Shown here: in pieces, positions 7,142-19,610 of the stretch
Layout of the letters: every line of letters starts with the position of its first letter
Position numbering within the stretch: the stretch's first letter is position 1
Source of the DNA: a virus
Virus record (IMG/VR): IMGVR_UViG_3300046506_000220
Location: 18,833 to 82,832 of that record
Direction: 5' to 3' (one strand)
Length of the DNA stretch: 64,000 nucleotides
Made by a program: the position numbers and the translations under genes
The notes under the pieces: model-generated
The model's input: the letters and a program-made list of their open reading frames with translations, nothing else
What the model was told of the DNA's origin: nothing
Database searches by the model: none

Positions 7142-10100
7142 ATGCACACCAACCGCACACTCCGGGGCGCAGGTGGGGGCGGGAGTGGTTCGAAGAACCC
7201 CACCCGCACCGATGACAACCTGTTCTCGCGCGACACGGTCGAGATCGTCCTGGCGCTCGGTGAAGGTCCGATCCGGGGACTGCGCAATGGCATGCAGTCG
7301 TTCCATGTCGGCGGCACGCCGCTGATGTCGGAGAATGGCTCGATCAACTTCGAGTCGTTCAATCTTGGCGTCAAGCTCGGGCACCCCGGCGAGTCCCCGA
7401 TCAACTTCCAGCTCGGTGGCGAAGCCTCCAACACGGCCGTCGGCACGCGCCTCTTTCAGGGTACCTGGATCACCCGCCAGACCGATGCGTCGCTTCGGAA
7501 TGACATCGACCAGCTCCAGGTCCGGCTTCAGGTCAGCACGCTGTATGTCCAGAACGACAAGGGTTCGTTCAACAACACGGCGCACTTCCATATCCAGTAC
7601 CGCGCCGCGTCGAGTCCGTCCTGGTCGGAATACAACGGCAGCGGCGGCATTGCCGTGACGGGCAAGACCTCAAGCGGCGTGATCGTCGAGTATGCATGGA
7701 ATGTGCCGCGTATCAACGATGACTGGGTGATCCGCGTTCTCAAGGACAATCCCGACAGCAGCACCACCGACTATTGCGACATCACCTGGGAAAGCTTCCA
7801 GATGGTTACCGCGAGCAACCGGACCTATAACCGGGTTGCCCTCCTCCATCTGGTTGCGCTCGCAACAAGCCAGTTCAGCTCGATCCCGGATTTTGCGGCG
7901 GAAGTTGACGGTCTCGAACTGCTGGTGCCGACCAACTACAACACCGACCTGCACACCTACGACGAAGGCACGCCGTGGAACGGGGGGTTCAAGCAGACCT
8001 GGACCAACAATAACGCCTGGGTTCTCTACAACCTGATCATGAACCCCGACTGGGGACTGGCGAAGTACTACCCGTGGATCACCTGCAACCGCTTCGACTT
8101 CTACGATGCCGGTAAATGGTGTGATGTCATGGTCCCGGACGGGCGAGGCGGCTGGCAACCGCGCTACACCTTCAACATGGAGATCAAGGACGCGCAAAGT
8201 GGCCTTGACATGCTGCAGTACGTGGCGGGCACCTTCGGCGCGGTGATCTTCGACGATGCGACCGGCATGGTCCATCTGCGCGTCGACCGGTGGGAGGAAC
8301 CGACCCTGCTGCTGACACCCGAGAACGTGTCACCTGAGGGTTTCAGCTACACCTTCACCGATATGGCCTCCCGCTATAACGACCTGGAGGTGCATTTCGT
8401 CAACCCGGACCTGGATTATCAGGGTGACCTGCGCAACGTCACTGACCCGAACCATATCGCGCTATACGGCCATATCCCGAACTCGTTCGAGGCGATTGGC
8501 TGTACCAGCGAGCATGAAGCGCTGCGCCGCGCCTACTACCGGCTGATCACGAACCTGACCGAGACCATGACGGTCACGTGCAGGACCGCGCGGCTCGGAC
8601 GCATCATTGACCCGTACAGGCCGATCTACATTGCCGACCCGACCACTGGTTATTCGACGGGTGGCCGGATCAGGTCGATCGCCAACAACCTGATCTATCT
8701 GCGCGACCCGATCTATTTTACGGTCAACCAGAACTACAACCTGAAGCTTCAGGCGCGCGGCGGCCTGTGGACACTGGTGGTGGCGCCCGATATGGTCGGT
8801 AGTGCCTACCAGTTGCGCATCGTGAGTGGCGTCATCCCACCGGACATCCCCGACCGCACCGTCTTCACGATCGAGGATAACGGCGGCTTTGGCATTGCGA
8901 AGCCCTTCCGGCCGCTCACGATCAGTCCCGCCGATGGCTCACCGAACGAATACGACATCACGGCTGTCGAGATCAACATCAACAAGCAGGCCGCGGCGGA
9001 TAACTGCACACCCGTCGGTAGCACGCAGTATTCGTTCAAGAATCCGCTGATCCCCCCTCCCCCGACGAATCTGGTCGCGGAGTCGGGCACGGCCATGCTG
9101 TTTCTCAGCCAGGACGGCACCATCATGGCGCGCATTCACGCGTCGTGGGACCCGCCTGGGACCGCCGTCATCAAGAACTACCTGATCCACTGGAAGGAGT
9201 CCAACCAGTCGACGTGGTTCGAGACGACCTCGATGAGCGAGAGTGTCATCCTGGCACCCTGCAAGACGGGGGTGCAGTACGACATCGTTGTCTGGGCAAT
9301 CAGCAGCTTTGACTATCGTAGCGCCCAGCTCGCGATGTGGAACTACACCTGCCTGGGCAAGGATGAGCCGCCGAGTGACGTGCAGAACTTCAATGCCATC
9401 AAGCGCTCACAGGACATCCTGCTGAGATGGGATCCGATTGCGGATCTGGACCGCGCCGGCTATGAGCTGCGTCTGGGGTCCAACTGGGACACGGCGGTGG
9501 TGCTCGTGACCGACTATGCGGCCACCCAGTTTGCCTGGACCACCACGCAGGGGGGCAGCTACGACTTCCTGATCCGCGCCATCGACACCTCGCACAACTA
9601 CTCCCGCCTGCCAACCCGCACGACGCTGCGGCTGTACGGCCCGTCTGCGGTGACCGGGGCGATTGCGATCCAGTCAGGCAACCGGGTCGACCTGCGGTGG
9701 AATCCGAACCCGGAAGACAACATCACCGACTACGAGATCCGCGAGGGAGGCACGTGGGCGACCGCCGTGTTCGTGGCCAAGGTGAAGTCGACCACCTACG
9801 CCGCCACGGCGGGCGCGGCAGGTACGCGGATCTTCTGGCTGAAGGCGATCGCGTCGCCGGGGATCTATTCAGACAAGGCGACGTTCGTGACCACCGACAT
9901 CGCCCAGTCCGACAGCACCAACATCCTGTACTCGTCGGATGAGGTGGCCAAGGGCTTCACCGGGCCAAAGTTCAACATGGTGTCCTATGGCCAGTCGCTG
10001 CGCATGGATGATGGCAAGACGAGGTCTGAATACTTCTTCTCGGTGAACCTGGGAGATGTATTCCGTGCCCAGAACTCGCTGTTTATCGGCCTGAACGCGA

Positions 10101-10741
10101 TCACCGATGACAAGACCACCTGGGCGCAGTCGACCTTCCCGTGGAATGACCCGATCGCCAACAAGCAGTGGTCCACACCGGGGGATATTGCCTCGATCGG
10201 CTACAGGATGGAGATCGCGACTTCATCCAGCCTGCCTTCAAACGTGCTGTACTCGTGGCGCCTGAATAACGTCCTGACGTTTGCCGGCCCTGGTGAGGAT
10301 GGCGCCGTCACGATCCAGCAGACGGTCACCTACAAGCCCAGCAAGTATGGTTCTGGCCTGTGGTGTCAGACTGCGCCGCTGCAACCGCTGCCCACGCGGG
10401 TTAACTTCAGCGTCAACATCCCGAACGTGTTCAGCACGTCGTTCTGGTTCGTTCCGGACGATCTGACCGACCACTTCCCGATCGTGAACCTGCAGGGTCG
10501 TGATGGCGTGTTCATCAAGATCGGTTATGCCGCGGCGACCCAGACGATCTATGCGCTTGACAACGCCGGCAGGAAGGTGTCGGTGCCGGCGAATATCGAG
10601 GCGGGTGAGCGCTACTTCATCGGCTTTTCGCAGAACGTTAACGAACGGATGATCTGGTTCGGCAAGGACGACGGTTCCTGGGCACGCTCGTCGATTGCGC
10701 TTCCTGGCATCGGCGCCACCATCAACTACTCGCTCTACTGA
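7142..10741 (+). CDS. Central tail fibre / host specificity protein gpJ-like with FnIII repeats
   Basis: LGEGPIRGL, WTNNNAWVLY, WCDVMVPDG..PRYTFN and FnIII-like PPSDVQNF segments. 1199 aa. Confidence 0.9.
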   Translation: MHTNRTLRGAGGGGSGSKNPTRTDDNLFSRDTVEIVLALGEGPIRGLRNGMQSFHVGGTPLMSENGSINFESFNLGVKLGHPGESPINFQLGGEASNTAVGTRLFQGTWITRQTDASLRNDIDQLQVRLQVSTLYVQNDKGSFNNTAHFHIQYRAASSPSWSEYNGSGGIAVTGKTSSGVIVEYAWNVPRINDDWVIRVLKDNPDSSTTDYCDITWESFQMVTASNRTYNRVALLHLVALATSQFSSIPDFAAEVDGLELLVPTNYNTDLHTYDEGTPWNGGFKQTWTNNNAWVLYNLIMNPDWGLAKYYPWITCNRFDFYDAGKWCDVMVPDGRGGWQPRYTFNMEIKDAQSGLDMLQYVAGTFGAVIFDDATGMVHLRVDRWEEPTLLLTPENVSPEGFSYTFTDMASRYNDLEVHFVNPDLDYQGDLRNVTDPNHIALYGHIPNSFEAIGCTSEHEALRRAYYRLITNLTETMTVTCRTARLGRIIDPYRPIYIADPTTGYSTGGRIRSIANNLIYLRDPIYFTVNQNYNLKLQARGGLWTLVVAPDMVGSAYQLRIVSGVIPPDIPDRTVFTIEDNGGFGIAKPFRPLTISPADGSPNEYDITAVEININKQAAADNCTPVGSTQYSFKNPLIPPPPTNLVAESGTAMLFLSQDGTIMARIHASWDPPGTAVIKNYLIHWKESNQSTWFETTSMSESVILAPCKTGVQYDIVVWAISSFDYRSAQLAMWNYTCLGKDEPPSDVQNFNAIKRSQDILLRWDPIADLDRAGYELRLGSNWDTAVVLVTDYAATQFAWTTTQGGSYDFLIRAIDTSHNYSRLPTRTTLRLYGPSAVTGAIAIQSGNRVDLRWNPNPEDNITDYEIREGGTWATAVFVAKVKSTTYAATAGAAGTRIFWLKAIASPGIYSDKATFVTTDIAQSDSTNILYSSDEVAKGFTGPKFNMVSYGQSLRMDDGKTRSEYFFSVNLGDVFRAQNSLFIGLNAITDDKTTWAQSTFPWNDPIANKQWSTPGDIASIGYRMEIATSSSLPSNVLYSWRLNNVLTFAGPGEDGAVTIQQTVTYKPSKYGSGLWCQTAPLQPLPTRVNFSVNIPNVFSTSFWFVPDDLTDHFPIVNLQGRDGVFIKIGYAAATQTIYALDNAGRKVSVPANIEAGERYFIGFSQNVNERMIWFGKDDGSWARSSIALPGIGATINYSLY

Positions 10742-10743
10742 AA

Positions 10744-11205
10744 ATGGCCCATACCATTTCTGACATCGCGGTGATGAATACGGTGCTCGATGATGACCTT
10801 TTCGTTGCGGCACTCAAGGGTGATGCGCCGGTCGGTTTCCAGCCGTTCCAGACGTTCTACCCTGGTGACTACCAGTACAGCGAGGCAGTCTTCCGTTTAA
10901 GCATGGAATCCACCTCAGGCGACCGCGGCGTGGTTGAGAAGCTGAGCATTACGGTGGATGTACCGGATATTTTCGACCGGGGGCTGCAACTGCTTAACGC
11001 CGGAGGCGTGGTACGGGTCTATTTCGCACGGAAGTTTCATGTCCCACCCGTCGTGGTGGTCAGCGTGGAAAGTGCGAGTGATGCCTGTGTGGCCAAGTTT
11101 GATCCGGCCACTGTCACGAAGATGTATTTCGACTGCTTTCTTGAACGCGTCACCGACAAGGTCAAGATCGCTGGCGCGCTGACCTGGGCCGCACATGCGT
11201 ACTGA
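10744..11205 (+). CDS. Tail tip accessory protein (beta-rich; H-type lectin-like C-terminus)
   Basis: Coupled to gpJ. VRVYFARKFHVPPVVVVS and LTWAAHAY. Confidence 0.6.
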   Translation: MAHTISDIAVMNTVLDDDLFVAALKGDAPVGFQPFQTFYPGDYQYSEAVFRLSMESTSGDRGVVEKLSITVDVPDIFDRGLQLLNAGGVVRVYFARKFHVPPVVVVSVESASDACVAKFDPATVTKMYFDCFLERVTDKVKIAGALTWAAHAY

Positions 11206-11268: not shown

Positions 11269-12771
11269 ATGCAAGGCTATACACAGATCCCCGACAGCGA
11301 GCGGGTTTCCGACTCGCTGATCCCGCTGCTCACGAATGATCAGGTGGCGATTTCGCGCAACGCGGGGTCGGCCTTCCCGACGTCCGGTCTGGTGGTGGGC
11401 ATGCCGTATCTGGCGGTCAGTGAAAACAAGCTCTACCGGCTGACCAGCCTCGCGCCGCTGACCTGGGTCGTGGAGCTGGACTACAACATCGCCTATGCGA
11501 CGGTGAATGATATTGCCGCGTCCAATGCGAACGCCAACCTGCGCATGTTGCGCAGCGGCGACCTGATGACGGGTTTTCTGACCCTGTTCAATGATCCGAC
11601 GCAGGCGCTGCACGCCGCGCCCAAGCGCTACGTCGACAACCAGATGGCCATCGCCGCGACCAGTGCGAACGCCCGCGTGGCGCGCAGCGGCGACCTGATG
11701 ACGGGCTACCTGACGTTGGTCGGGGACCCCTCCCAGCCCTATCACGCCGCGACCAAAAACTATGCTGACTACCTGTACAACGCGCTGAACAGCGCGAAGG
11801 TGGGCCGCAACAGCGACACCTTCAACGAGGTTTACAACAACGGCTGGTACCGCTCGAATGGCGCGGTCGGCTGGTACAGCCAGAGCTATGGCGGCGGCAT
11901 CTGGATGGCTGACCCCTACTATGTGAGCGTGTATGGCGGCAAGGGCTTTCGCACCGACACCCACACGCTGGAGATCGGCACGGGTGGCATCTGGACCGCG
12001 CGCTACGGCTGGCTTGAAAACCGCTTCGCCGGCAAGGGCGCGGAAGACCGGATCAACGGCACGGCGACGGTTGACGCCGGTTCGGGCGGTGTCCTTGCCC
12101 CTGCGTCTTTCTACCTTGACCGTAGCGGCTCGGCCGCGCGCCTCGTGCGCGTCTACGGCAACTGCAACTGCAACTGCGCGTGCACGTGCTTCCCGGCCGG
12201 CACGCCGATCCTGCTGGGCGATGGCAAAACGTGGATGTCCGTCGAACACATCCGCCCGGGCGACATGGTGATGACGCCGCTTGGGCCGATGCCCGTGCTC
12301 GAGGTGGAAACGCCTGTTCTCGGCGATCGCAGGATGCTCGGCTTTGCTGACGATCCGTTTGTACGCTGGACCGACGATCACGCATTCTGGACGCGCCGCG
12401 ATGGTCGCGAAGGCCTCGCCGTGGCCGATCGCGCGAGCTTCATGCGTGGCGTCGAGCTGGGCGTCGTGCGCGGCCTTCCGGATAACGATGCGGTGCTCGA
12501 GCTTGACGATGAGCGCGACGAATTCGCGCACTTTATGGGCGGCTGGGTTCGCCAGAAGGTGGTCGATTTCACCGACGGGCACGCGCCCGATACGCGCGTG
12601 TACCTGCCGATCGTGGGCGGCTGTCACCTGATCATTGCCGCCGGCTACGTGATGAGCGGCGGCGCCAACGGCTTTGACTTCGACTATCACTCGCTCGACT
12701 GGGATGCCATGCAGCGCCAGCGGTATTCCGGGAACTCACCCAGGGGGACTGCCCATGCTGCTGGTCCATAA
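11269..12771 (+). CDS. Tail fibre with Cys-rich NCNCNCACT motif fused to a C-terminal Hint (intein/Hedgehog-like) domain
   Basis: Two SGDLMTG..HAA.K.Y fibre repeats and a GWYSQSYGGGIWM segment. Hint block A CFPAGT starts at Cys307, block B is TDDH, and the C-terminal block is VYLPIVGGCH..AAGYVMSG. Confidence 0.85.
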   Translation: MQGYTQIPDSERVSDSLIPLLTNDQVAISRNAGSAFPTSGLVVGMPYLAVSENKLYRLTSLAPLTWVVELDYNIAYATVNDIAASNANANLRMLRSGDLMTGFLTLFNDPTQALHAAPKRYVDNQMAIAATSANARVARSGDLMTGYLTLVGDPSQPYHAATKNYADYLYNALNSAKVGRNSDTFNEVYNNGWYRSNGAVGWYSQSYGGGIWMADPYYVSVYGGKGFRTDTHTLEIGTGGIWTARYGWLENRFAGKGAEDRINGTATVDAGSGGVLAPASFYLDRSGSAARLVRVYGNCNCNCACTCFPAGTPILLGDGKTWMSVEHIRPGDMVMTPLGPMPVLEVETPVLGDRRMLGFADDPFVRWTDDHAFWTRRDGREGLAVADRASFMRGVELGVVRGLPDNDAVLELDDERDEFAHFMGGWVRQKVVDFTDGHAPDTRVYLPIVGGCHLIIAAGYVMSGGANGFDFDYHSLDWDAMQRQRYSGNSPRGTAHAAGP

Positions 12772-13486
12772 ATCCCTCATTGCCACCGAGCTGACGGTTG
12801 AAGAGGCACAGCAGGTTACCGACATCGTCAACGTGCTGCCGACGGACACCGGCTTCGTGATGCAGTGCCCGTCGCTGAGCCTCTACTGGCAGTTCAACCT
12901 GGAGCTGGTCGAGCACGGTAACGACATCCTGTACCTGAACCGTACGCGCGCGGGCCAGTGGACGGTCATGTGGGCGACCGACCTGCACGAGTCGAAAGAC
13001 AGCTGGTCATCGGTGATGCTGCGCAAGAACCTGGATGAGTTCCGCCCGCTGGTAATGATCGGCATCAGCCCCGACAGGAAGGACTACACCGCGATCTTCT
13101 TCTGTAACACCCGTGAGCCGAACAATCCGCAGCCGCTGGTTGATGACACCACCGAGACGGGTGACATGTCGATGAAGCGCCTGATGCCCGGCATCGAGCC
13201 GCTGCTGCAACGTCACTGGGCGAAGCACAAGCTCCTGAAGGGTGTGAAGACCAATGACTCGCTGGCCGCGCTCGAAGCGCAGGTGGACCTGCTGACGTTC
13301 TGGCTGCTCGAGTACCTGCCCGAGGACAAGCGCCAGAAACTCCTTGACGCAGGGGTGCTGAAACTCAAGGATGAAGAGACACTTTTCGATGACGTGATCG
13401 CCTACAAGACCCGCCTGCGTGAACGGCAGGCGCTCTACCTTGCGACGCTGAGCCAGTATGACAACCTTCGTCCTGAAAACGGTTGA
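12755..13486 (+). CDS. Hypothetical protein within the fibre/radical SAM module
   Basis: ATG at 12755 after the RBS AGGGGG. Overlaps both neighbouring genes. Helical C-terminus. Confidence 0.7.
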   Translation: MLLVHKSLIATELTVEEAQQVTDIVNVLPTDTGFVMQCPSLSLYWQFNLELVEHGNDILYLNRTRAGQWTVMWATDLHESKDSWSSVMLRKNLDEFRPLVMIGISPDRKDYTAIFFCNTREPNNPQPLVDDTTETGDMSMKRLMPGIEPLLQRHWAKHKLLKGVKTNDSLAALEAQVDLLTFWLLEYLPEDKRQKLLDAGVLKLKDEETLFDDVIAYKTRLRERQALYLATLSQYDNLRPENG

Positions 13487-14822
13487 CGCGACGGGTACCG
13501 GGCGCGACTTCTTCTACAACAACATGCGCAGCACGCTGGTGGATGCCGTCACCGGCCGCAGCGTCGTGCCGCTCACCGAGGCGCCTGAGCGCGCGCCGTT
13601 CCAGCATCCAGGCCGCAAGGACCACACGATCCGCACGCTCAAGATCCAGCTCGGTCTCTCGTGCAACTACAGCTGCGAGTATTGCAGCCAGCGCTTCGTG
13701 CCGCATGCGCAGCCGACCGGCCCCTACTCGGTTGACCAGTTCATCTCGCGCCTGTCGTGGAACGCGTCGCTCGCGGACGATGCGACGATCGAGTTCTGGG
13801 GGGGCGAGCCGCTCGTCTACTGGAAGACGCTGGTGCCACTGGTTGAGCAGCTGCGCATCCGCTATCCGGCGCTGACCCTGAAGATGATCACCAACGGCTC
13901 GCTGCTCGACCCGATGAAAGCAGGCTGGCTGATCTCGCAGGGTTTTCACATCGGCCTCTCGCATGATGGTCCTGGGCAGGTCGCGCGTGGTCCGGATCCG
14001 CTCGACGAACCCGCCACGCGCGAGGCGATCCTGATGTTGTACCGGCGACTGGCGCCACTTGGGCGCATGTCGTTCAACACGATGCTGCACAGGGACAATC
14101 GGTCGCGAAAAGCGGTACAGGCGTTTTTCGTCGAGCTGACGGGCGATGAGCATGTGTCCATTGGCGAGGGCATGTTCGTCGATGCGTACGATGAGGGCGG
14201 CAAGGGCATGTCGATGCCGGATCCGCATGACCACATCGATTACCGCCGCCAGGCGTTCGAGGAGCTGCGCACCGGCCAGGCGCTGAACTTCATGAATGTC
14301 ACGCAGAAGATCCAGGATTTCGCCCAGTCGGTTGCGACCGGCCGGCCGGCCTCGACGGTCGGCCAGAAATGCGGATCCGATCGCGCCGACAGCCTGACGG
14401 TGACGCTCGAAGGCGATGTGCTGACCTGCCAGAATGTCTCGGCCGTGGCGGTGGCACCGAACGGCACGCCACATCGTGCGGGGTCGCTCGATGATCTGCA
14501 GTCGGTGCAGCTCACCTCGTCGCGTCACTGGTCGACGCGTTCGCACTGTTCGGGCTGTCCGGTTCTGCAGCTGTGCAAGGGCAGCTGCATGTTCCTCGAG
14601 GGGGACCTGTGGAACGTCACCTGTGACAGCGCGTATAGCGATAACGTGGTGTTCCTCGCAACCGCCCTGCTCGAGCTGACAGGCTGCACCCTGAAGCGCA
14701 TCGAGCCGATGACGGGCAGTCTGCCTGAGCCCCGCCAGAACGTCTTTGGGCCGCTCGCCACGCCGCGGGCCGCACCCGCACCCCGCAAGATCATCTGGAT
14801 CAGAACGGAGACACCATCTTGA
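13458..14822 (+). CDS. Radical SAM/SPASM-domain protein (anSME/peptide maturase-like)
   Basis: CNYSCEYC (CX3CX2C), FWGGEPL, ITNG and SHDG. SPASM Cys in KCG..LTCQN and CSGCPVLQLCKGSC (CX2CX5CX3C)..C. Confidence 0.93.
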   Translation: MTTFVLKTVDATGTGRDFFYNNMRSTLVDAVTGRSVVPLTEAPERAPFQHPGRKDHTIRTLKIQLGLSCNYSCEYCSQRFVPHAQPTGPYSVDQFISRLSWNASLADDATIEFWGGEPLVYWKTLVPLVEQLRIRYPALTLKMITNGSLLDPMKAGWLISQGFHIGLSHDGPGQVARGPDPLDEPATREAILMLYRRLAPLGRMSFNTMLHRDNRSRKAVQAFFVELTGDEHVSIGEGMFVDAYDEGGKGMSMPDPHDHIDYRRQAFEELRTGQALNFMNVTQKIQDFAQSVATGRPASTVGQKCGSDRADSLTVTLEGDVLTCQNVSAVAVAPNGTPHRAGSLDDLQSVQLTSSRHWSTRSHCSGCPVLQLCKGSCMFLEGDLWNVTCDSAYSDNVVFLATALLELTGCTLKRIEPMTGSLPEPRQNVFGPLATPRAAPAPRKIIWIRTETPS

Positions 14823-15243: not shown

Positions 15244-18200
15244 ATGGCCAACAGCGGCGCCCCCACCAACGCGGATGGTGCAACGGTCACGACCGTGCTG
15301 GCGCCCGTTGCCTCGACGACACCGCATGCGCCGATCGCGATGCTGTATGGTCTCGGCCCACCGATCAGCAGCATCGGGGTCGAGGGCGCGTTCTACCGGG
15401 ACATGAACAACGATGACATGTACGGTCCCAAGGCGGGCGGTGTGTGGCCTGACGCGTACAGCATCCGTGGCTGGAAAGGTGACCAGGGTGTGCAGGGTGA
15501 GGTTGGGACGCTCAACCCGGACGACCAGGCCTACATCGACGCGGCGAAGACCGCTACGGATGCCAACCGCACCGCTGCTGCTGCCAGTCAGGCTGCTGCC
15601 GCGACCAGCGCAACCAGTGCGGGGACGTCAGCCACCAATGCGCATACGAGCGAAACGAACGCAGCTGCAAGTCAGGCCGCCGCCGTAACAAGCCAGGCCG
15701 CCGCCGACGCATCGAAGACGGCCGCGGCCGGCAGCGCGACGCAGGCCGACACCTCGAAAAATGCTGCGGCGACGAGTGCCGGCGCGGCGAGCACCTCGGC
15801 GACCGCTGCGGACCAGTCGAAGCAGGCCGCCGCGACGAGTGCTACCGCCGCAGCCGGCAGCGCTACCGCCGCTGATACGTCGAAGACGGCAGCGGACGCC
15901 AGCAAGACTGCTGCGGCCGGCAGTGCGACGGCAGCAGGCAACAGCGCGACGGCCGCCGCCCTTTCCGCAACCAGCATCGGTAACTCGGAAACGAATGCCC
16001 TCGCCTCGAAGAACGCGGCGGCTGCGAGCGCCAGCGCCGCCGACGTATCGAAGACGGCCGCTGCCGGCAGTGCCACCGCAGCCGCTACGAGTGCGACGGG
16101 CGCGGCCAGCTCGAAGACGGGCGCTGACAACAGTGCCACGGCAGCGGCTGGTAGCGCGACGGCAGCGGATGCCAGCAAGACTGCTGCTGCCGGCAGTGCG
16201 ACGGCAGCGGATGCCAGCAAGAGCGCTGCTGCGGGTTCCGCCAGTGCCGCAGCCGGCAGCGCCACAGCAGCGGACGCCAGCAAGAGCGCTGCCGCTCTTT
16301 CCGCCAGCAGCATCGGTAGCTCGGAAACGAACGCCCTGGCTTCGGCCAATGCAGCGGCGGCGAGTGCGAGCGCCGCCGACGTATCGAAGACGGATGCTGC
16401 CACGAGCGCGACGGAGGCTGGGTCGAGTGCGACGGCAGCAGCCACGAGCGCGACGGAGGCTGATGACAGCGCTGCTGCAGCAGCCGGTAGTGCAACGGCA
16501 GCGGATACCAGCAAGACGGCTGCCGATGCATCGAAGACAGCTGCTGCCGGTAGTGCAACGGCCGCTGCCGGCAGTGCGACGGCAGCAGGCAACAGCGCCG
16601 CCGCCGCGAGCGCCAGTGCCGCCAGCATCGGTAGCTCGGAAACCAATGCCCTGGCCTCGGCGGATGCAGCGGCAGCCAGTGCCAGCGCCGCCGACGTATC
16701 GAAGACGGCCGCTGCCGACAGTGCAACGGCCGCTGCCGGCAGTGCCGCCGCAGCCGCGACGAGTGCGACGGCGGCAGCCACCTCGAAGACGGGGGCTGAC
16801 AACAGCGCTGCTGCAGCGGATGCCAGCAAGACGGCTGCGGCAGGTTCCGCCAGTGCCGCAGCCGGCAGTGCGACAGCAGCAGGCGACAGCGCGACGGCGG
16901 CAGGCGACAGCGCGACGGCGGCAGGCGACAGCGCGACGGCCGCTGCCCTGTCGGCCACCAGCCTCGGTAACTCGGAAACGAACGCCCTGGCTTCGGCCAA
17001 TGCAGCGGCTGCGAGCGCGACGGACGCAGCCGGCAGCGCGACGCAGGCCGATACATCGAAGCAGGCGGCGGCGACGAGCGCAGGTGCTGCGAGCAGCTCA
17101 GCCACGGCAGCGGACCAGTCGAAGCAGGCGGCAGCGACGAGCGCCACGGCCGCCGCCGCGAGTGCCACCGCTGCTGACACCTCGAAGAACGCCGCAGCCG
17201 GCAGCGCGACAGCGGCAGGTAATAGCGCGACAGCGGCAGGCGATAGCGCCACGGCGGCAGGCAACAGCGCCGCCAGCATCGGCAACTCGGAGACGAACGC
17301 ACTGGCCTCGGCTAATGCTGCGGCGGCCAGCGCGACGCAGGCCGATACATCGAAGCAGGTGGCGGCGACGAGCGCGAGCGCAGCCGCGACGAGTGCGACG
17401 GCGGCAGCCACCTCGAAGACGGGGGCTGATAACAGTGCCACGGCAGCAGCTGGCAGCGCCACGGCAGCGGATGCGTCGAAGACGGCTGCTGCTGGTAGTG
17501 CCACGGCAGCAGGTAACAGCGCCACAGCAGCGGACGCCAGCAAGACTGCTGCGGCCAGCAGCGCCACGGCAGCGGCCACCTCCGTCGCCAGCATCGGTAA
17601 CTCGGAAACGAATGCCCTGGCCTCGGCCAATGCCGCTGCGGCGAGCGCTGCTGCCGCCGATACATCGAAGAATGCTGCGGCGACGAGTGCAGGTGCAGCC
17701 GCAACTAGTGCGACGGGCGCGGCCACCTCGAAGACGGGGGCGGACAACAGCGCCACGGCAGCGGATGCCAGCAAGACTGCAGCGGCTGGTAGCGCCAGTG
17801 CTGCTGACACCTCGAAGACCGCTGCTGCCGGCAGCGCGACGGCAGCGGCCGGTAGCGCCACGGCGGCGGACACCAGCAGGACAGCTGCCGCAGGTTCTGC
17901 TACTGCAGCAGCTGACAGCGCCACGGCGGCAGGCAACAGCGCGACCGCGGCGGCTAACAGCGCATCGGGTGCAGCAACCAGCGCGAACAATGCCTCAGCA
18001 ACGTTAGCGAACGCCCTGACGAAGGCTAATAACCTGTCCGATGTGGCTGATGCTGCCACCGCGCGCTCGAACCTCGGGCTGGGCACGGCAGCTACGCACC
18101 CCGTCGGGGACCTGCTCCAGACGGCGAACAACCTGTCCGACGTGACCCCCGCCACCGCGCGCTCGAACCTCGGGCTGGGCACGGTTGCCACGCACCCCGT

Positions 18201-18711
18201 CGGGGACCTGCTCCAGACGGCGAACAACCTGTCGGACCTCCAGAGTGCATCGACCGCGCGCTCGAACCTCGGGCTGGGCACGGCAGCTACGCACCCGCTC
18301 ACGGACTTCGTCCAGCCGACGAACAACCTGTCGGACGTGCAGAACGCGGGGACCGCGCGAGCCAACATCGGGGCCAATGTGTACGACATTGCGCTGTCGA
18401 TTGAAGGCAAGACAACCAACGCAGAGCTGGTGTTCAACTTTGTGGTGGGGCGTGCCTTCACCTGGCCCGCGAACCTTACCGGCTCCGCGGCGAAAGCGTC
18501 CGTTGCAGCAACCGCTTCAGCGACCTTCTCGATCACGCAGAACGGTGGCGCGATTGGCTCTTTCAACTTTGCAGCCAGTGCCACGGTTGCCACGTTCACT
18601 TTCGCTTCTCCCGTGACCTTTGCCGCAGGCGACCTGATCCAGATTACGGCTCCGGCGACCGCTGATACCACCCTCGCGAATATCGGCGTGACCTTTGCAG
18701 GAACACGGTGA
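15244..18711 (+). CDS. Side tail fibre (Stf-like), Ala/Ser/Thr repeat shaft
   Basis: About 800 aa of SETNALAS / SKTAAAGSATAA repeats, then NNLSD..ARSNLGLG repeats and a beta-rich tip. Confidence 0.88.
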   Translation: MANSGAPTNADGATVTTVLAPVASTTPHAPIAMLYGLGPPISSIGVEGAFYRDMNNDDMYGPKAGGVWPDAYSIRGWKGDQGVQGEVGTLNPDDQAYIDAAKTATDANRTAAAASQAAAATSATSAGTSATNAHTSETNAAASQAAAVTSQAAADASKTAAAGSATQADTSKNAAATSAGAASTSATAADQSKQAAATSATAAAGSATAADTSKTAADASKTAAAGSATAAGNSATAAALSATSIGNSETNALASKNAAAASASAADVSKTAAAGSATAAATSATGAASSKTGADNSATAAAGSATAADASKTAAAGSATAADASKSAAAGSASAAAGSATAADASKSAAALSASSIGSSETNALASANAAAASASAADVSKTDAATSATEAGSSATAAATSATEADDSAAAAAGSATAADTSKTAADASKTAAAGSATAAAGSATAAGNSAAAASASAASIGSSETNALASADAAAASASAADVSKTAAADSATAAAGSAAAAATSATAAATSKTGADNSAAAADASKTAAAGSASAAAGSATAAGDSATAAGDSATAAGDSATAAALSATSLGNSETNALASANAAAASATDAAGSATQADTSKQAAATSAGAASSSATAADQSKQAAATSATAAAASATAADTSKNAAAGSATAAGNSATAAGDSATAAGNSAASIGNSETNALASANAAAASATQADTSKQVAATSASAAATSATAAATSKTGADNSATAAAGSATAADASKTAAAGSATAAGNSATAADASKTAAASSATAAATSVASIGNSETNALASANAAAASAAAADTSKNAAATSAGAAATSATGAATSKTGADNSATAADASKTAAAGSASAADTSKTAAAGSATAAAGSATAADTSRTAAAGSATAAADSATAAGNSATAAANSASGAATSANNASATLANALTKANNLSDVADAATARSNLGLGTAATHPVGDLLQTANNLSDVTPATARSNLGLGTVATHPVGDLLQTANNLSDLQSASTARSNLGLGTAATHPLTDFVQPTNNLSDVQNAGTARANIGANVYDIALSIEGKTTNAELVFNFVVGRAFTWPANLTGSAAKASVAATASATFSITQNGGAIGSFNFAASATVATFTFASPVTFAAGDLIQITAPATADTTLANIGVTFAGTR
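18029..18375 (+). repeat. Tandem coding repeats of about 96-99 bp (NNLSDV..TARSNLGLGT..THP) in the fibre
   Basis: ACCGCGCGCTCGAACCTCGGGCTGGGCACGG occurs three times, plus a degenerate fourth unit. Confidence 0.9.
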
Positions 18712-19610
18712 TGGCGCAGAAATTCGTCATCCTGACGAGTGGCAACCAGTGGGCTGTTCCGGCTGACTGTTCTGGCACGCTCGACAAGGTCGAGATGATC
18801 GGGGCCTCAGGCTCTGCCATGCGTGGTGGGGGTGCTGGTGGTAGTTACGCTGTCCAGCCGAACCTGGTCGTGGGCGCTCCGGGAACCGTGGTGAACTATC
18901 AGATAGGTGCGGCCCCCGTTGCGGGCACAAACAGTCCTGGTCCCTTCACTACACAGCGCTCATGGTTTCTCGATCAAACGAAGTACCGCGCAGGGGGTGG
19001 GACTTGCTGCTACAACAATGCAGCAGCACTAGCTACCCCCGACTCCGCTGTTCAAGCAGGAGGTACTTCGTACCTCGGCGGTAATGGCGGTGCCCAGGCT
19101 TCTACAGGTTCAGGTAATGGCGGGGGGGGTGGTGCGGCAGGGCCTTTGGGTGTTGGTGGTAAGGGGGGGTCTGCTGTTGGTTCAGGCACAGGCAGTGGAG
19201 GTGGTGGTGGCGCCAATAATGGTGTCGCTGCTGCTAATGGCACTAATGGCACTGCAACTGCAACGGCTGGTGGTAATTCGGGCACTGGTGGAGTCGGTGG
19301 TATCGCAGGTACTGCAACTGTTCCTAATGGTGGTGCCGGGGGTCCCGGTGCTGGCGGTGGGGGAGCTACCACGACCACAGGTGTTGGTGGTAAGGGCGGT
19401 GATGGTAACGGCATGGCTGATGGCTCTGTAGGCCCCGGTGGTGGGGGCGGTGGAGGGAAAGTCGCAAGTACCATGGGCGGCGCTGGTGGTCAGTATGGTG
19501 GTGGTCCCGGTGGTGGTACCGCGAATCAGGCAGGTACCCAAGGTCTCATCGTCCTCACCTACACACCCGTGGCCGCAGCCGCGCGGCGCATCGTATCGAT
19601 AGTGGTCTGA
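18708..19610 (+). CDS. Glycine-rich tail fibre-associated protein (putative adhesin)
   Basis: Coupled to the fibre gene. GGGGAAG / GGGGG loops resemble polyglycine II sandwich adhesins. Confidence 0.7.
   Translation: MMAQKFVILTSGNQWAVPADCSGTLDKVEMIGASGSAMRGGGAGGSYAVQPNLVVGAPGTVVNYQIGAAPVAGTNSPGPFTTQRSWFLDQTKYRAGGGTCCYNNAAALATPDSAVQAGGTSYLGGNGGAQASTGSGNGGGGGAAGPLGVGGKGGSAVGSGTGSGGGGGANNGVAAANGTNGTATATAGGNSGTGGVGGIAGTATVPNGGAGGPGAGGGGATTTTGVGGKGGDGNGMADGSVGPGGGGGGGKVASTMGGAGGQYGGGPGGGTANQAGTQGLIVLTYTPVAAAARRIVSIVV

Follow-up and report, generated by a model that had tools for sequence, protein, structure and literature searches.

A tail-fibre gene with a terminal Hint domain

The virus record IMGVR_UViG_3300046506_000220 (IMG/VR) is 82,832 bases long, with a CheckV completeness of 100%. 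Bases 18833-82832 of this record, a stretch of 64,000 nucleotides, were analysed and are called the window here. The subject of this report is a side tail-fibre gene of the window, whose product ends in a predicted self-processing Hint domain. An Asn/Cys ladder directly precedes the domain. Two further genes follow the fibre gene, encoding ORF243 (ORF, open reading frame) and a radical S-adenosylmethionine (SAM) enzyme with a SPASM domain (Table 1). The end of the fibre gene overlaps the ATG of ORF243, and the end of ORF243 overlaps the start of the radical SAM gene, so that the three genes form one unit.

Table 1 Position of the fibre gene, its predicted parts and the neighbouring genes, in coordinates of the window (aa, amino acids; pLDDT, predicted local distance difference test).
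Feature	Position	Strand	Remarks
gpJ-like central tail-fibre gene, upstream of fibre gene	7142-10741		phrog_31, E 1e-149
153-aa ORF between gpJ-like gene and fibre gene	10744-11205		
Side tail-fibre gene	11269..12771	+	500 aa; weak PHROG tail-fibre matches
Predicted mature fibre, aa 1-306	11269..12186	+	Collinear with Hint-less fibres of 306-330 aa
Asn/Cys ladder, N298-C-N-C-N-C-A-C-T306	12160..12186	+	Cys in register with Cys307
Hint fold, C307-G464 (C307-F-P-A-G-T at 12187)	12187..12660	+	Predicted scissile bond T306/C307
Block B, T368-D-D-H371	12370..12381	+	Read from sequence
S463-G464	12655..12660	+	Structural positions of intein penultimate His and terminal Asn
Family-specific conserved tail, G465-Y486	12661..12726	+	N/D-x3-[FY]-D-Y-x4-W, then short helix
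Disordered, unconserved last 14 aa and stop codon	12727..12771	+	pLDDT 49-73
ORF243	12755..13486	+	No family match; ATG overlaps fibre gene end
Radical SAM/SPASM enzyme	13458..14822	+	454 aa; phrog_1802, E 6e-57

A preliminary description of the gene, made from its letters, had proposed a cleavage- or ligation-only Hint domain with an intact N-terminus (CFPAGT) and block B (TDDH), an end reading GYVMSG in place of HN-C/S/T, and a C-terminal extension of about 35 aa. Both motifs were read in the sequence, at C307 and at T368-D-D-H371. The chain end reads ...I-I-A-A-G-Y-V-M-S463-G464, followed by 36 residues (G-A-N-G-F-D-F-D-Y-H-S-L-D-W-D... to P500), and after G464 there is neither His-Asn nor a C/S/T nucleophile. 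The extension is present, but it falls into two parts, of which residues 465-486 are conserved and confidently modelled and residues 487-500 are unconserved and disordered.

By a word-based search, 15 relatives of the fibre were retrieved, with 57-87% identity over residues 290-500. Some of them were from Burkholderia, and some had precomputed Hom_end_hint matches. The ladder residues C299, C301, C303 and C305 were invariant in the fibre and all its relatives (16/16).

Fold of the terminal domain

Searches with the fibre protein itself gave Pfam matches below threshold, to Hint_2 (residues 306-338, E 0.038, 14.8 bits against a cut-off of 28.4) and to Vint (E 0.087, 13.1 bits against a cut-off of 27). 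The single phmmer match in the PDB was an intein C-terminal splicing domain protein (8w20_A, E 0.076), and the only NCBIfam match was an intein-containing radical SAM model (E 0.074). Ten C-terminal pieces (alignment A2) were made into a profile, and among 1.84 billion representative proteins this profile matched 3391 at E ≤ 1e-3, 688 at E ≤ 1e-10 and 134 at E ≤ 1e-30, the last number indicating a likeness far beyond chance. Pfam Hint-type models (Hom_end_hint) matched 43 of the 54 members of a larger alignment (A3) at E ≤ 0.01. Pfam Hint PF01079 matched 28 of these 54 relatives weakly and left the fibre's own piece unmatched.

An AlphaFold2 model calculated from the 54-sequence alignment reached a pLDDT of 90.7 and a predicted template modelling score of 0.86. 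Foldseek retrieved 44 PDB matches at E ≤ 1e-3 for this model, and all 39 among the matches listed had the Hint fold. The top match was the BIL2 domain of Tetrahymena thermophila BUBL1 (6y75; E 1.2e-7, template modelling score 0.77 on the target). VIA-align superposed 143 of 150 residues on BIL2 (Z 17.6, root-mean-square deviation 2.4, model range 9-173). Altogether, 81 of 668 chains were aligned at Z ≥ 8, among them inteins (Z 12-15), the bacterial intein-like (BIL) domain of Clostridium thermocellum (Z 14.7) and the Hedgehog autoprocessing domain 1at0 (Z 13.4). The nearest viral models in BFVD carry the automatic name 'Hint domain containing protein [uncultured Caudovirales phage]' (E 1.8e-15). 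As modelled, residues 307-464 form a true Hint fold, as had been claimed beforehand; a fold other than Hint, which would have refuted that claim, was not obtained.

In the structural alignments, model residue 14 (C307) corresponded to intein residue 1. Model residue 171 (G464) was aligned with the last residue of the gp41-1, RecA and PI-SceI inteins and with N143A of BIL2. G464 thus takes the position of the intein terminal Asn, and S463-G464 replace His-Asn, which bears out the earlier reading of the GYVMSG end.

Conservation and modularity

Family conservation was determined from 166 proteins, consisting of P0001-P0016 and the best 150 of the profile matches. Of these, the 133 with one full-length domain were kept as representatives; the other 33 were multi-domain or truncated and were left out. 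Cys1 was found in 132/133, followed by Phe at +1 in 129 and Gly at +4 in 119. Block B had Ser in 106, Thr in 25 and His in 131 representatives. The last strand had the consensus (I/V)(V/A)(N/D/E)-G-Y-x-V, and the positions of the intein His-Asn were occupied by G (65), S (38) or T (14) and then by A (85) or G (36). The residues for the N-S acyl shift are therefore kept and the C-terminal ones replaced by [G/S/T][A/G], a pattern that agrees with the cleavage-type Hint domain of the preliminary description and predicts cleavage. N467 (N in 71 and D in 44 representatives) was considered as a displaced cleavage Asn and rejected, as it is not at the structural Asn position.

The tail behind the fold, N/D-x3-[F/Y]-D-Y-x4-W, was conserved as well, with D in 114, Y in 123 and W in 122 of the representatives. 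It was confidently modelled (pLDDT of the block 94-95), with a helix at model residues 185-193. In 116 representatives the domain ended at most 20 aa from the protein C-terminus. The Hint-bearing proteins were about 200 to 2600 aa long, and some had collagen repeats or a Gp38 adhesin domain, as expected of fibres.

The residue preceding Cys1 was T in 67, S in 39 and C in 14 representatives. Cys was found at -2, -4, -6 and -8 in 45, 52, 49 and 39 of them, and in every case it kept the register of Cys1. About half of the sampled family had no ladder, but Pro- or Gly-rich linkers ahead of Cys1 and the same Hint domain. Where the ladder is present, its Cys residues and Cys1 of the Hint domain (12160-12189 in the window) share one strict alternate-residue register, with C at -8, -6, -4, -2 and 0 across the family. 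This common register suggests that the last rung of a ladder was the site at which the Hint domain was fused, or was taken over by it.

The relatives P0002-P0005 were 79-90% identical to the fibre in the ladder and Hint domain and 41-46% identical in the fibre body. Such a difference points to the exchange of the module between fibres; by sequence comparison, the Hint domain is a swappable module on many phage fibres.

Within the fibre body, residues 189-232 contain an N-N-G-W-Y-R-S-N-G segment that resembles the constant region of the shufflon PilV pilus-tip adhesin (PF04917, E 0.011). The PF04917 domain was precomputed on 11 of the 15 fibre relatives, one of which is called PilV by NCBI. The segment also occurred in metagenome-assembled genomes of Patescibacteria/Gracilibacteria and in fibres of Shewanella and Aeromonas phages.

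Fibre homologues without a Hint domain

In IMG/VR, over 517 relatives of the radical SAM family were found, of which the 80 best loci were retained. Upstream proteins were counted at the 59 loci with at least 3 kb of upstream sequence; the remaining 21 had less and were left out. A protein with a terminal ladder and no Hint was found at 39 loci, a ladder with Hint at 16, and neither at 4. After removal of redundancy at 90%, 35 loci were left, with 20, 11 and 4 in the same three groups.

The Hint-less proteins end in the ladder itself, with zero to four residues before the stop codon (e.g. ...N-C-N-C-D-C-N-C-C-stop and ...C-N-C-N-C-D-C-Y-C-stop). Several of them (L114, L120, L144, L154, L102 and others) are ORFs of 306-330 aa that matched fibre residues 1-83 and 237-305 end to end (phmmer E 1e-15 to 1e-20). 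In their alignment with the fibre (A8), the Hint-less fibres stop at the ladder, and the ladder Cys columns are invariant in 8/8 sequences. The predicted N-fragment of the Hint-capped fibre has 306 aa. Because the Hint-less homologues stop at the Cys ladder, a cut between T306 and C307 would recreate a natural fibre end.

Other arrangements were also found. Three ORFs in tandem, each about 95 aa long, lay upstream of a single radical SAM gene (L168-L170, 3651-4533); each ended in an N-C-N-C ladder and had no fibre body or Hint domain. At L162 (3951-5093), the ladder was followed by G-G-G-C-F-T-E-E and a 224-aa region that partly matched the Hint profile (39 bits, profile positions 2-55). This region may be a decayed Hint cap.

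The radical SAM enzyme follows the ladder

The radical SAM protein has the invariant motif C69-x3-C73-x2-C76 and seven further invariant Cys in its C-terminal half. The SPASM model TIGR04085 was matched with 30.2 bits, above the cut-off of 27. All named maturase models (PapB, QhpD, anSME, SCIFF maturase) stayed below their cut-offs; PapB was the best with 46.1 bits against 340, and anSME had 41.2 against 349. With the named NCBIfam models so far under their cut-offs, the protein represents a separate enzyme family.

The order of a Hint-capped fibre, an ORF of 240-270 aa and a radical SAM gene was kept in Burkholderia paludis (L001) and in seven IMG/VR contigs of 78-83 kb. It was also found with a fibre of 35% identity (L013) and in the cultured Achromobacter phage JWF. 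Linkage was assessed for the window together with loci L001-L050, which contained 29 Hint-family ORFs after redundancy had been removed at 90% domain identity. All 15 fibres with at least three Cys in the 16 residues before Cys1 had a radical SAM gene of the window type (352-766 bits) within 2.5 kb downstream. Among the 14 Hint fibres with at most one Cys, two of them at loci with less than 4 kb of downstream sequence, such a gene was found once (L017, 335 bits, 5 kb downstream, the last of four radical SAM-like ORFs). One more ladder-less Hint fibre (L049) had a 48-bit radical SAM match upstream. The association of ladder and enzyme gave a Fisher p of 2e-7, which is an upper bound on significance and overstates independence, since the loci were gathered with family-derived patterns and many came from related phages. 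With 15/15 against 1/14, the enzyme follows the ladder and not the Hint domain.

The sole exception to this rule lies on an 81-kb viral contig (L017/L018/L023/L024). There, a ladder-less Hint fibre (...V-P-P-V-L-T/C-F-P-A-G, the slash marking the junction) is followed by a 304-aa ORF and four CX3CX2C ORFs, of which only the last resembles the radical SAM gene. A 109-kb viral contig had two tandem Hint-capped ladder fibres (L035, 6458-7639 and 8329-9519), with a single radical SAM gene after them. Elsewhere on this contig, at L034, there was a third Hint-capped ladder fibre with its own radical SAM gene.

Based on the gene linkage, the co-encoded radical SAM/SPASM enzyme probably acts on the ladder. 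Another candidate reaction was an anSME-like conversion of Cys307. The sulfatase motif is C-x-P-x-R, to which C-F-P-A-G had been likened, and this candidate was dropped because the radical SAM gene tracks the ladder, not the Hint domain.

In its CX3CX2C motif, its seven-Cys SPASM domain and its link to an Asn/Asp-Cys ladder, the phage enzyme resembles the thioether-forming systems NxxcB/NxxcA, PapB and CrpC/CrpA, the last from Methanococcus voltae. NxxcB makes a Cys to Asn beta-thioether (PMC9389541), and CrpC puts thioethers on a full-size 28.8-kDa protein (PMC13692751). Unlike these maturases, the phage enzyme belongs to a separate family by its NCBIfam scores, and its substrate would be the tip of a virion fibre. 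By analogy with them, we lean slightly towards thioether cross-linking of the ladder as the reaction of the phage enzyme.

ORF243 between fibre and enzyme

Homologues of ORF243 were found as 19 ORFs among the loci gathered, and the family travels with the radical SAM gene. Of the 12 non-redundant radical SAM loci with a Hint-capped fibre, 10 had an ORF243 score of 249-392 bits; of the 20 terminal-ladder loci, 4 had one, of only 80-101 bits. Searches of Pfam, PHROG and NCBIfam returned no matching family. The ESM Atlas had no usable match (all template modelling scores < 0.4, pLDDT of the protein's own model 0.36).

A complex of the Hint piece, the radical SAM enzyme and ORF243 was predicted, and ORF243 was scored. 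The score was 0.46 (runs 0.46, 0.54 and 0.37), and the best of three controls had 0.00, which lends weak support to a contact. In the calibration of this score, 116 of 157 solved complexes came up to the mark, as did 2 of 215 mismatched pairs; 18 of the 157 solved complexes and both mismatches were at 0.60 or under. The runs agreed in at least 0% of contacts, with a pLDDT of at least 68 for ORF243, and no interface was obtained. When the radical SAM chain was replaced and the Hint piece kept, the score fell to 0.00, so that the predicted contact of ORF243 leans on the enzyme and not on the Hint domain. The prediction was not used as evidence on the function of the Hint domain.

Comparison with known systems

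The best structural matches of the phage domain were BIL2 (6y75, 6tmm) and the Clostridium thermocellum BIL (2lwy). BIL domains share with it the Hint fold, Cys1 and block B and, as predicted for the phage domain, a role in autoprocessing rather than in intein mobility. Sequence identity to them was 14-21%. Differing from BILs, the phage family sits at the extreme end of fibres and has its own FDY...W tail. The type A BIL domain has a C-terminal His-Asn (PMC4031507). The phage domain has S463-G464 at this place, and its family G/S/T followed by A/G. BIL2 and type A BILs keep the C-terminal Asn (the solved BIL2 is a C1A-N143A mutant), whereas the phage domain has Gly there. Type B BILs have no intein-like block G, and their cleavage is uncoupled from splicing. 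The missing His-Asn of the phage domain fits type B, but its last strand is still block-G-like (I-I-A-x-G-Y-V-x). The phage domain would work like a type B BIL or a Hedgehog domain, with predicted cleavage at the N-terminus only, and is structurally nearest to BIL2.

The Hedgehog domain 1at0 shares the Hint fold (root-mean-square deviation 2.5, 129 residues aligned), the lack of a terminal His-Asn and a short extra C-terminal segment. N-terminal-only cleavage through a Cys thioester, as in Hedgehog, is predicted for the phage domain. In Hedgehog, the thioester is resolved by cholesterol bound at the sterol-recognition region. For the phage domain, in contrast, there was no sign of a sterol or other acceptor, and the Hint-less homologues argue for plain release.

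The preliminary description had presented the domain as an alternative to the self-cleaving peptidase S74 chaperone. This analogy holds for the position and the predicted removal: both are C-terminal fibre modules, predicted in the phage protein to remove itself and to be absent from the mature virion protein. The S74 chaperone has another fold and another chemistry, with a Ser-Lys dyad, and is trimeric. The fibre protein had no S74 match in Pfam at E ≤ 0.1, and its fold is that of Hint.

A cultured counterpart is PJWF_00028 of Achromobacter phage JWF (KP202971), 49% identical over residues 1-481, with the same order of fibre, 240-aa ORF and radical SAM gene. In the annotation, these three are a 'Hom_end-associated Hint family protein', a hypothetical protein and an 'anaerobic sulfatase-maturating enzyme'; this is annotation only. 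No paper on the function of the JWF fibre gene was found in a literature search that did not cover the paper describing JWF.

Proposed processing of the fibre

In Hint chemistry, Cys1, together with Thr and His of block B, turns the preceding peptide bond into a thioester. In the fibre, Cys307 would attack the carbonyl of T306, aided by T368 and H371, and a thioester would form. Since both the terminal Asn and the +1 nucleophile are missing, C-terminal cleavage and splicing are not expected to follow, and the thioester would be resolved by water or by another nucleophile. In our proposal it would be hydrolysed. The 194-aa Hint module would then be discarded, and a 306-aa fibre with the free ladder end ...N-C-N-C-N-C-A-C-T would be left.

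This reading is built on the observed fold, catalytic motifs, conservation, Hint-less homologues and gene linkage. It is likely that residues 307-464 are an autoprocessing Hint domain that cleaves only at its N-terminus and acts as a removable C-terminal cap. The first-step residues are conserved, the later-step residues are absent, and homologous fibres end at the junction. The most likely outcome, and a probable one, is therefore that hydrolysis releases a 306-aa fibre whose C-terminus is a free ladder. Cleavage, hydrolysis, the order of events and the radical SAM chemistry are what we infer. Since about half of the family has neither ladder nor radical SAM gene, the role of the cap would be a general one. 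The preliminary description had named release, cyclisation through the four neighbouring Cys, or ligation as possible fates of the fibre end. The comparative evidence favours simple release over cyclisation and ligation, as Hint-less fibres end at the same ladder. The four Cys belong to a conserved (C-x)n ladder coupled to the radical SAM gene two genes downstream.

Several points weigh against this reading. The fibre's own sequence matches the Pfam Hint models weakly (Hint_2 above), and the isolated Hint piece had no Pfam match at E ≤ 0.01. The first AlphaFold2 model, from 10 sequences, was poor (pLDDT 63.7); its Foldseek matches were weak (best 6.2e-4), yet all were Hint folds. The literature search yielded no report on Hint-capped fibres. 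The way in which the linkage loci were gathered counts here as well. Ladder-less Hint fibres exist, which makes the role of the Hint domain independent of the radical SAM enzyme and connects the two parts of the story loosely, and one such fibre (L017/L018) also has radical SAM-like genes downstream. Finally, the FDY...W tail could form a site for another nucleophile.

The last point leads to a Hedgehog-like transfer, in which the T306 thioester would be resolved by a specific nucleophile, such as a small molecule, ORF243 or another virion protein. The FDY...W tail would then act as the sterol-recognition region does, and the tip would carry an adduct or be ligated. Such a transfer fits the tail behind the Hint fold, which is conserved, modelled with confidence and without an equivalent in inteins. 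It also fits the presence of Hedgehog among the structural matches (Z 13.4) and the co-inheritance of ORF243, a protein with no known function. We nevertheless consider it unlikely. Hint-less homologous fibres end in a plain ladder, so that adduct chemistry is not needed for a working fibre. The tail has about 22 aa, and sterol-recognition regions are much longer. The loss of the ORF243 complex score on replacement of the radical SAM chain, with the Hint piece kept, also speaks weakly against it. Capture of the thioester by a ladder Cys, e.g. C305, would instead give a C-terminal thiolactone or another cyclised end, perhaps locked further by the radical SAM enzyme. This was the cyclisation suggested at the outset, and the ladder Cys are strictly in register with Cys1 (-2, -4, -6, -8). 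However, about half of the family is ladder-less yet has the same Hint domain, Hint-less ladders exist, and thiolactones are, as a matter of general chemistry, labile in water, all of which renders this capture very unlikely.

Alternatively, the domain may have lost its processing activity and be retained on the mature fibre as a distal structural knob. In class 1 inteins, block F contains an acidic residue; no such residue was evident by eye in V-Y-L-P-I-V, which would be compatible with a knob. The near-invariance of Cys1 (132/133) and block B His (131/133) at identities down to about 30% within the family is hard to explain without catalysis, however. The module is also more conserved than the fibre body (P0002-P0005), the opposite of what a receptor-binding tip would show, and Hint-less homologues stop at the junction. 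We therefore regard a non-cleaving knob as quite improbable. A true intein, or a degenerate mobile one inserted in the fibre gene, would agree with the closest PDB sequence match (8w20_A) and with structural matches dominated by inteins. Canonical class 1 intein features are lacking, however: S463-G464-G465 stand at the His-Asn-+1 positions, only 36 aa follow, and there is no C-extein. No endonuclease was matched in Pfam, and the domain is terminal in 116/133 representatives. Already contradicted by the missing C-terminal splice junction, the intein explanation has practically no probability left.

Hydrolytic release could also be replaced by a scheme in which the Hint thioester and the radical SAM enzyme are halves of one pathway. 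The Hint domain would hold the ladder accessible to the enzyme, ORF243 would dock on the enzyme, and the Asn/Cys ladder would be stapled, possibly across three fibre chains, before the thioester is resolved to a cross-linked, non-standard C-terminus. We give this scheme a low probability. If it were true, chemistry of the type found in peptides that are made on the ribosome and modified afterwards (RiPPs) and chemistry of the intein type would together build the receptor-binding tip of the virion.

Other genes of the window

Downstream of the radical SAM gene lies an ORF of 1155 aa (15244-18711, + strand), nearly all of which consists of Ala/Ser/Thr-rich repeats (...AAGSATAADTSKTAA...). After the repeats, an N-N-L-S-D-V...A-R-S-N-L-G-L-G-T-A-A-T-H-P motif occurs in three copies, and the C-terminal part is globular. 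This ORF probably encodes a second, long fibre. Directly after it, a glycine-rich ORF of 300 aa with G-G-x-G-G runs was found (18708-19610, + strand).

Novelty and significance

In GenBank, the JWF homologue is already annotated as a Hint protein, and a Hint domain in such fibres is therefore not new in itself. In the literature searched, we found no description of Hint-capped phage fibres or of the pairing of ladder and radical SAM enzyme. Papers on Hint and tail fibre (phiCbK, CBB) dealt with terminase inteins only, and papers on cyanophages and on Achromobacter and Acinetobacter phages had nothing on this gene. The sequence comparisons support the existence of a large, uncharacterised phage family of terminal, predicted N-cleaving Hint caps, which in this phage covers a Cys ladder linked to a radical SAM gene.

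The comparison of fibres with and without a cap leads to a clear prediction, namely a product of 306 aa with ...CACT at its end. For protein engineering, the family would in addition be a source of a compact, naturally occurring N-cleaving Hint module. The ladder, travelling with a radical SAM/SPASM gene, points to enzymatic modification of the host-recognition tip of the virion. The C-terminal phage-fibre modules known to remove themselves are mainly S74 chaperone domains. If the proposed processing is true, Hint thioester chemistry would be a second, unrelated solution for self-removal and would widen this picture.

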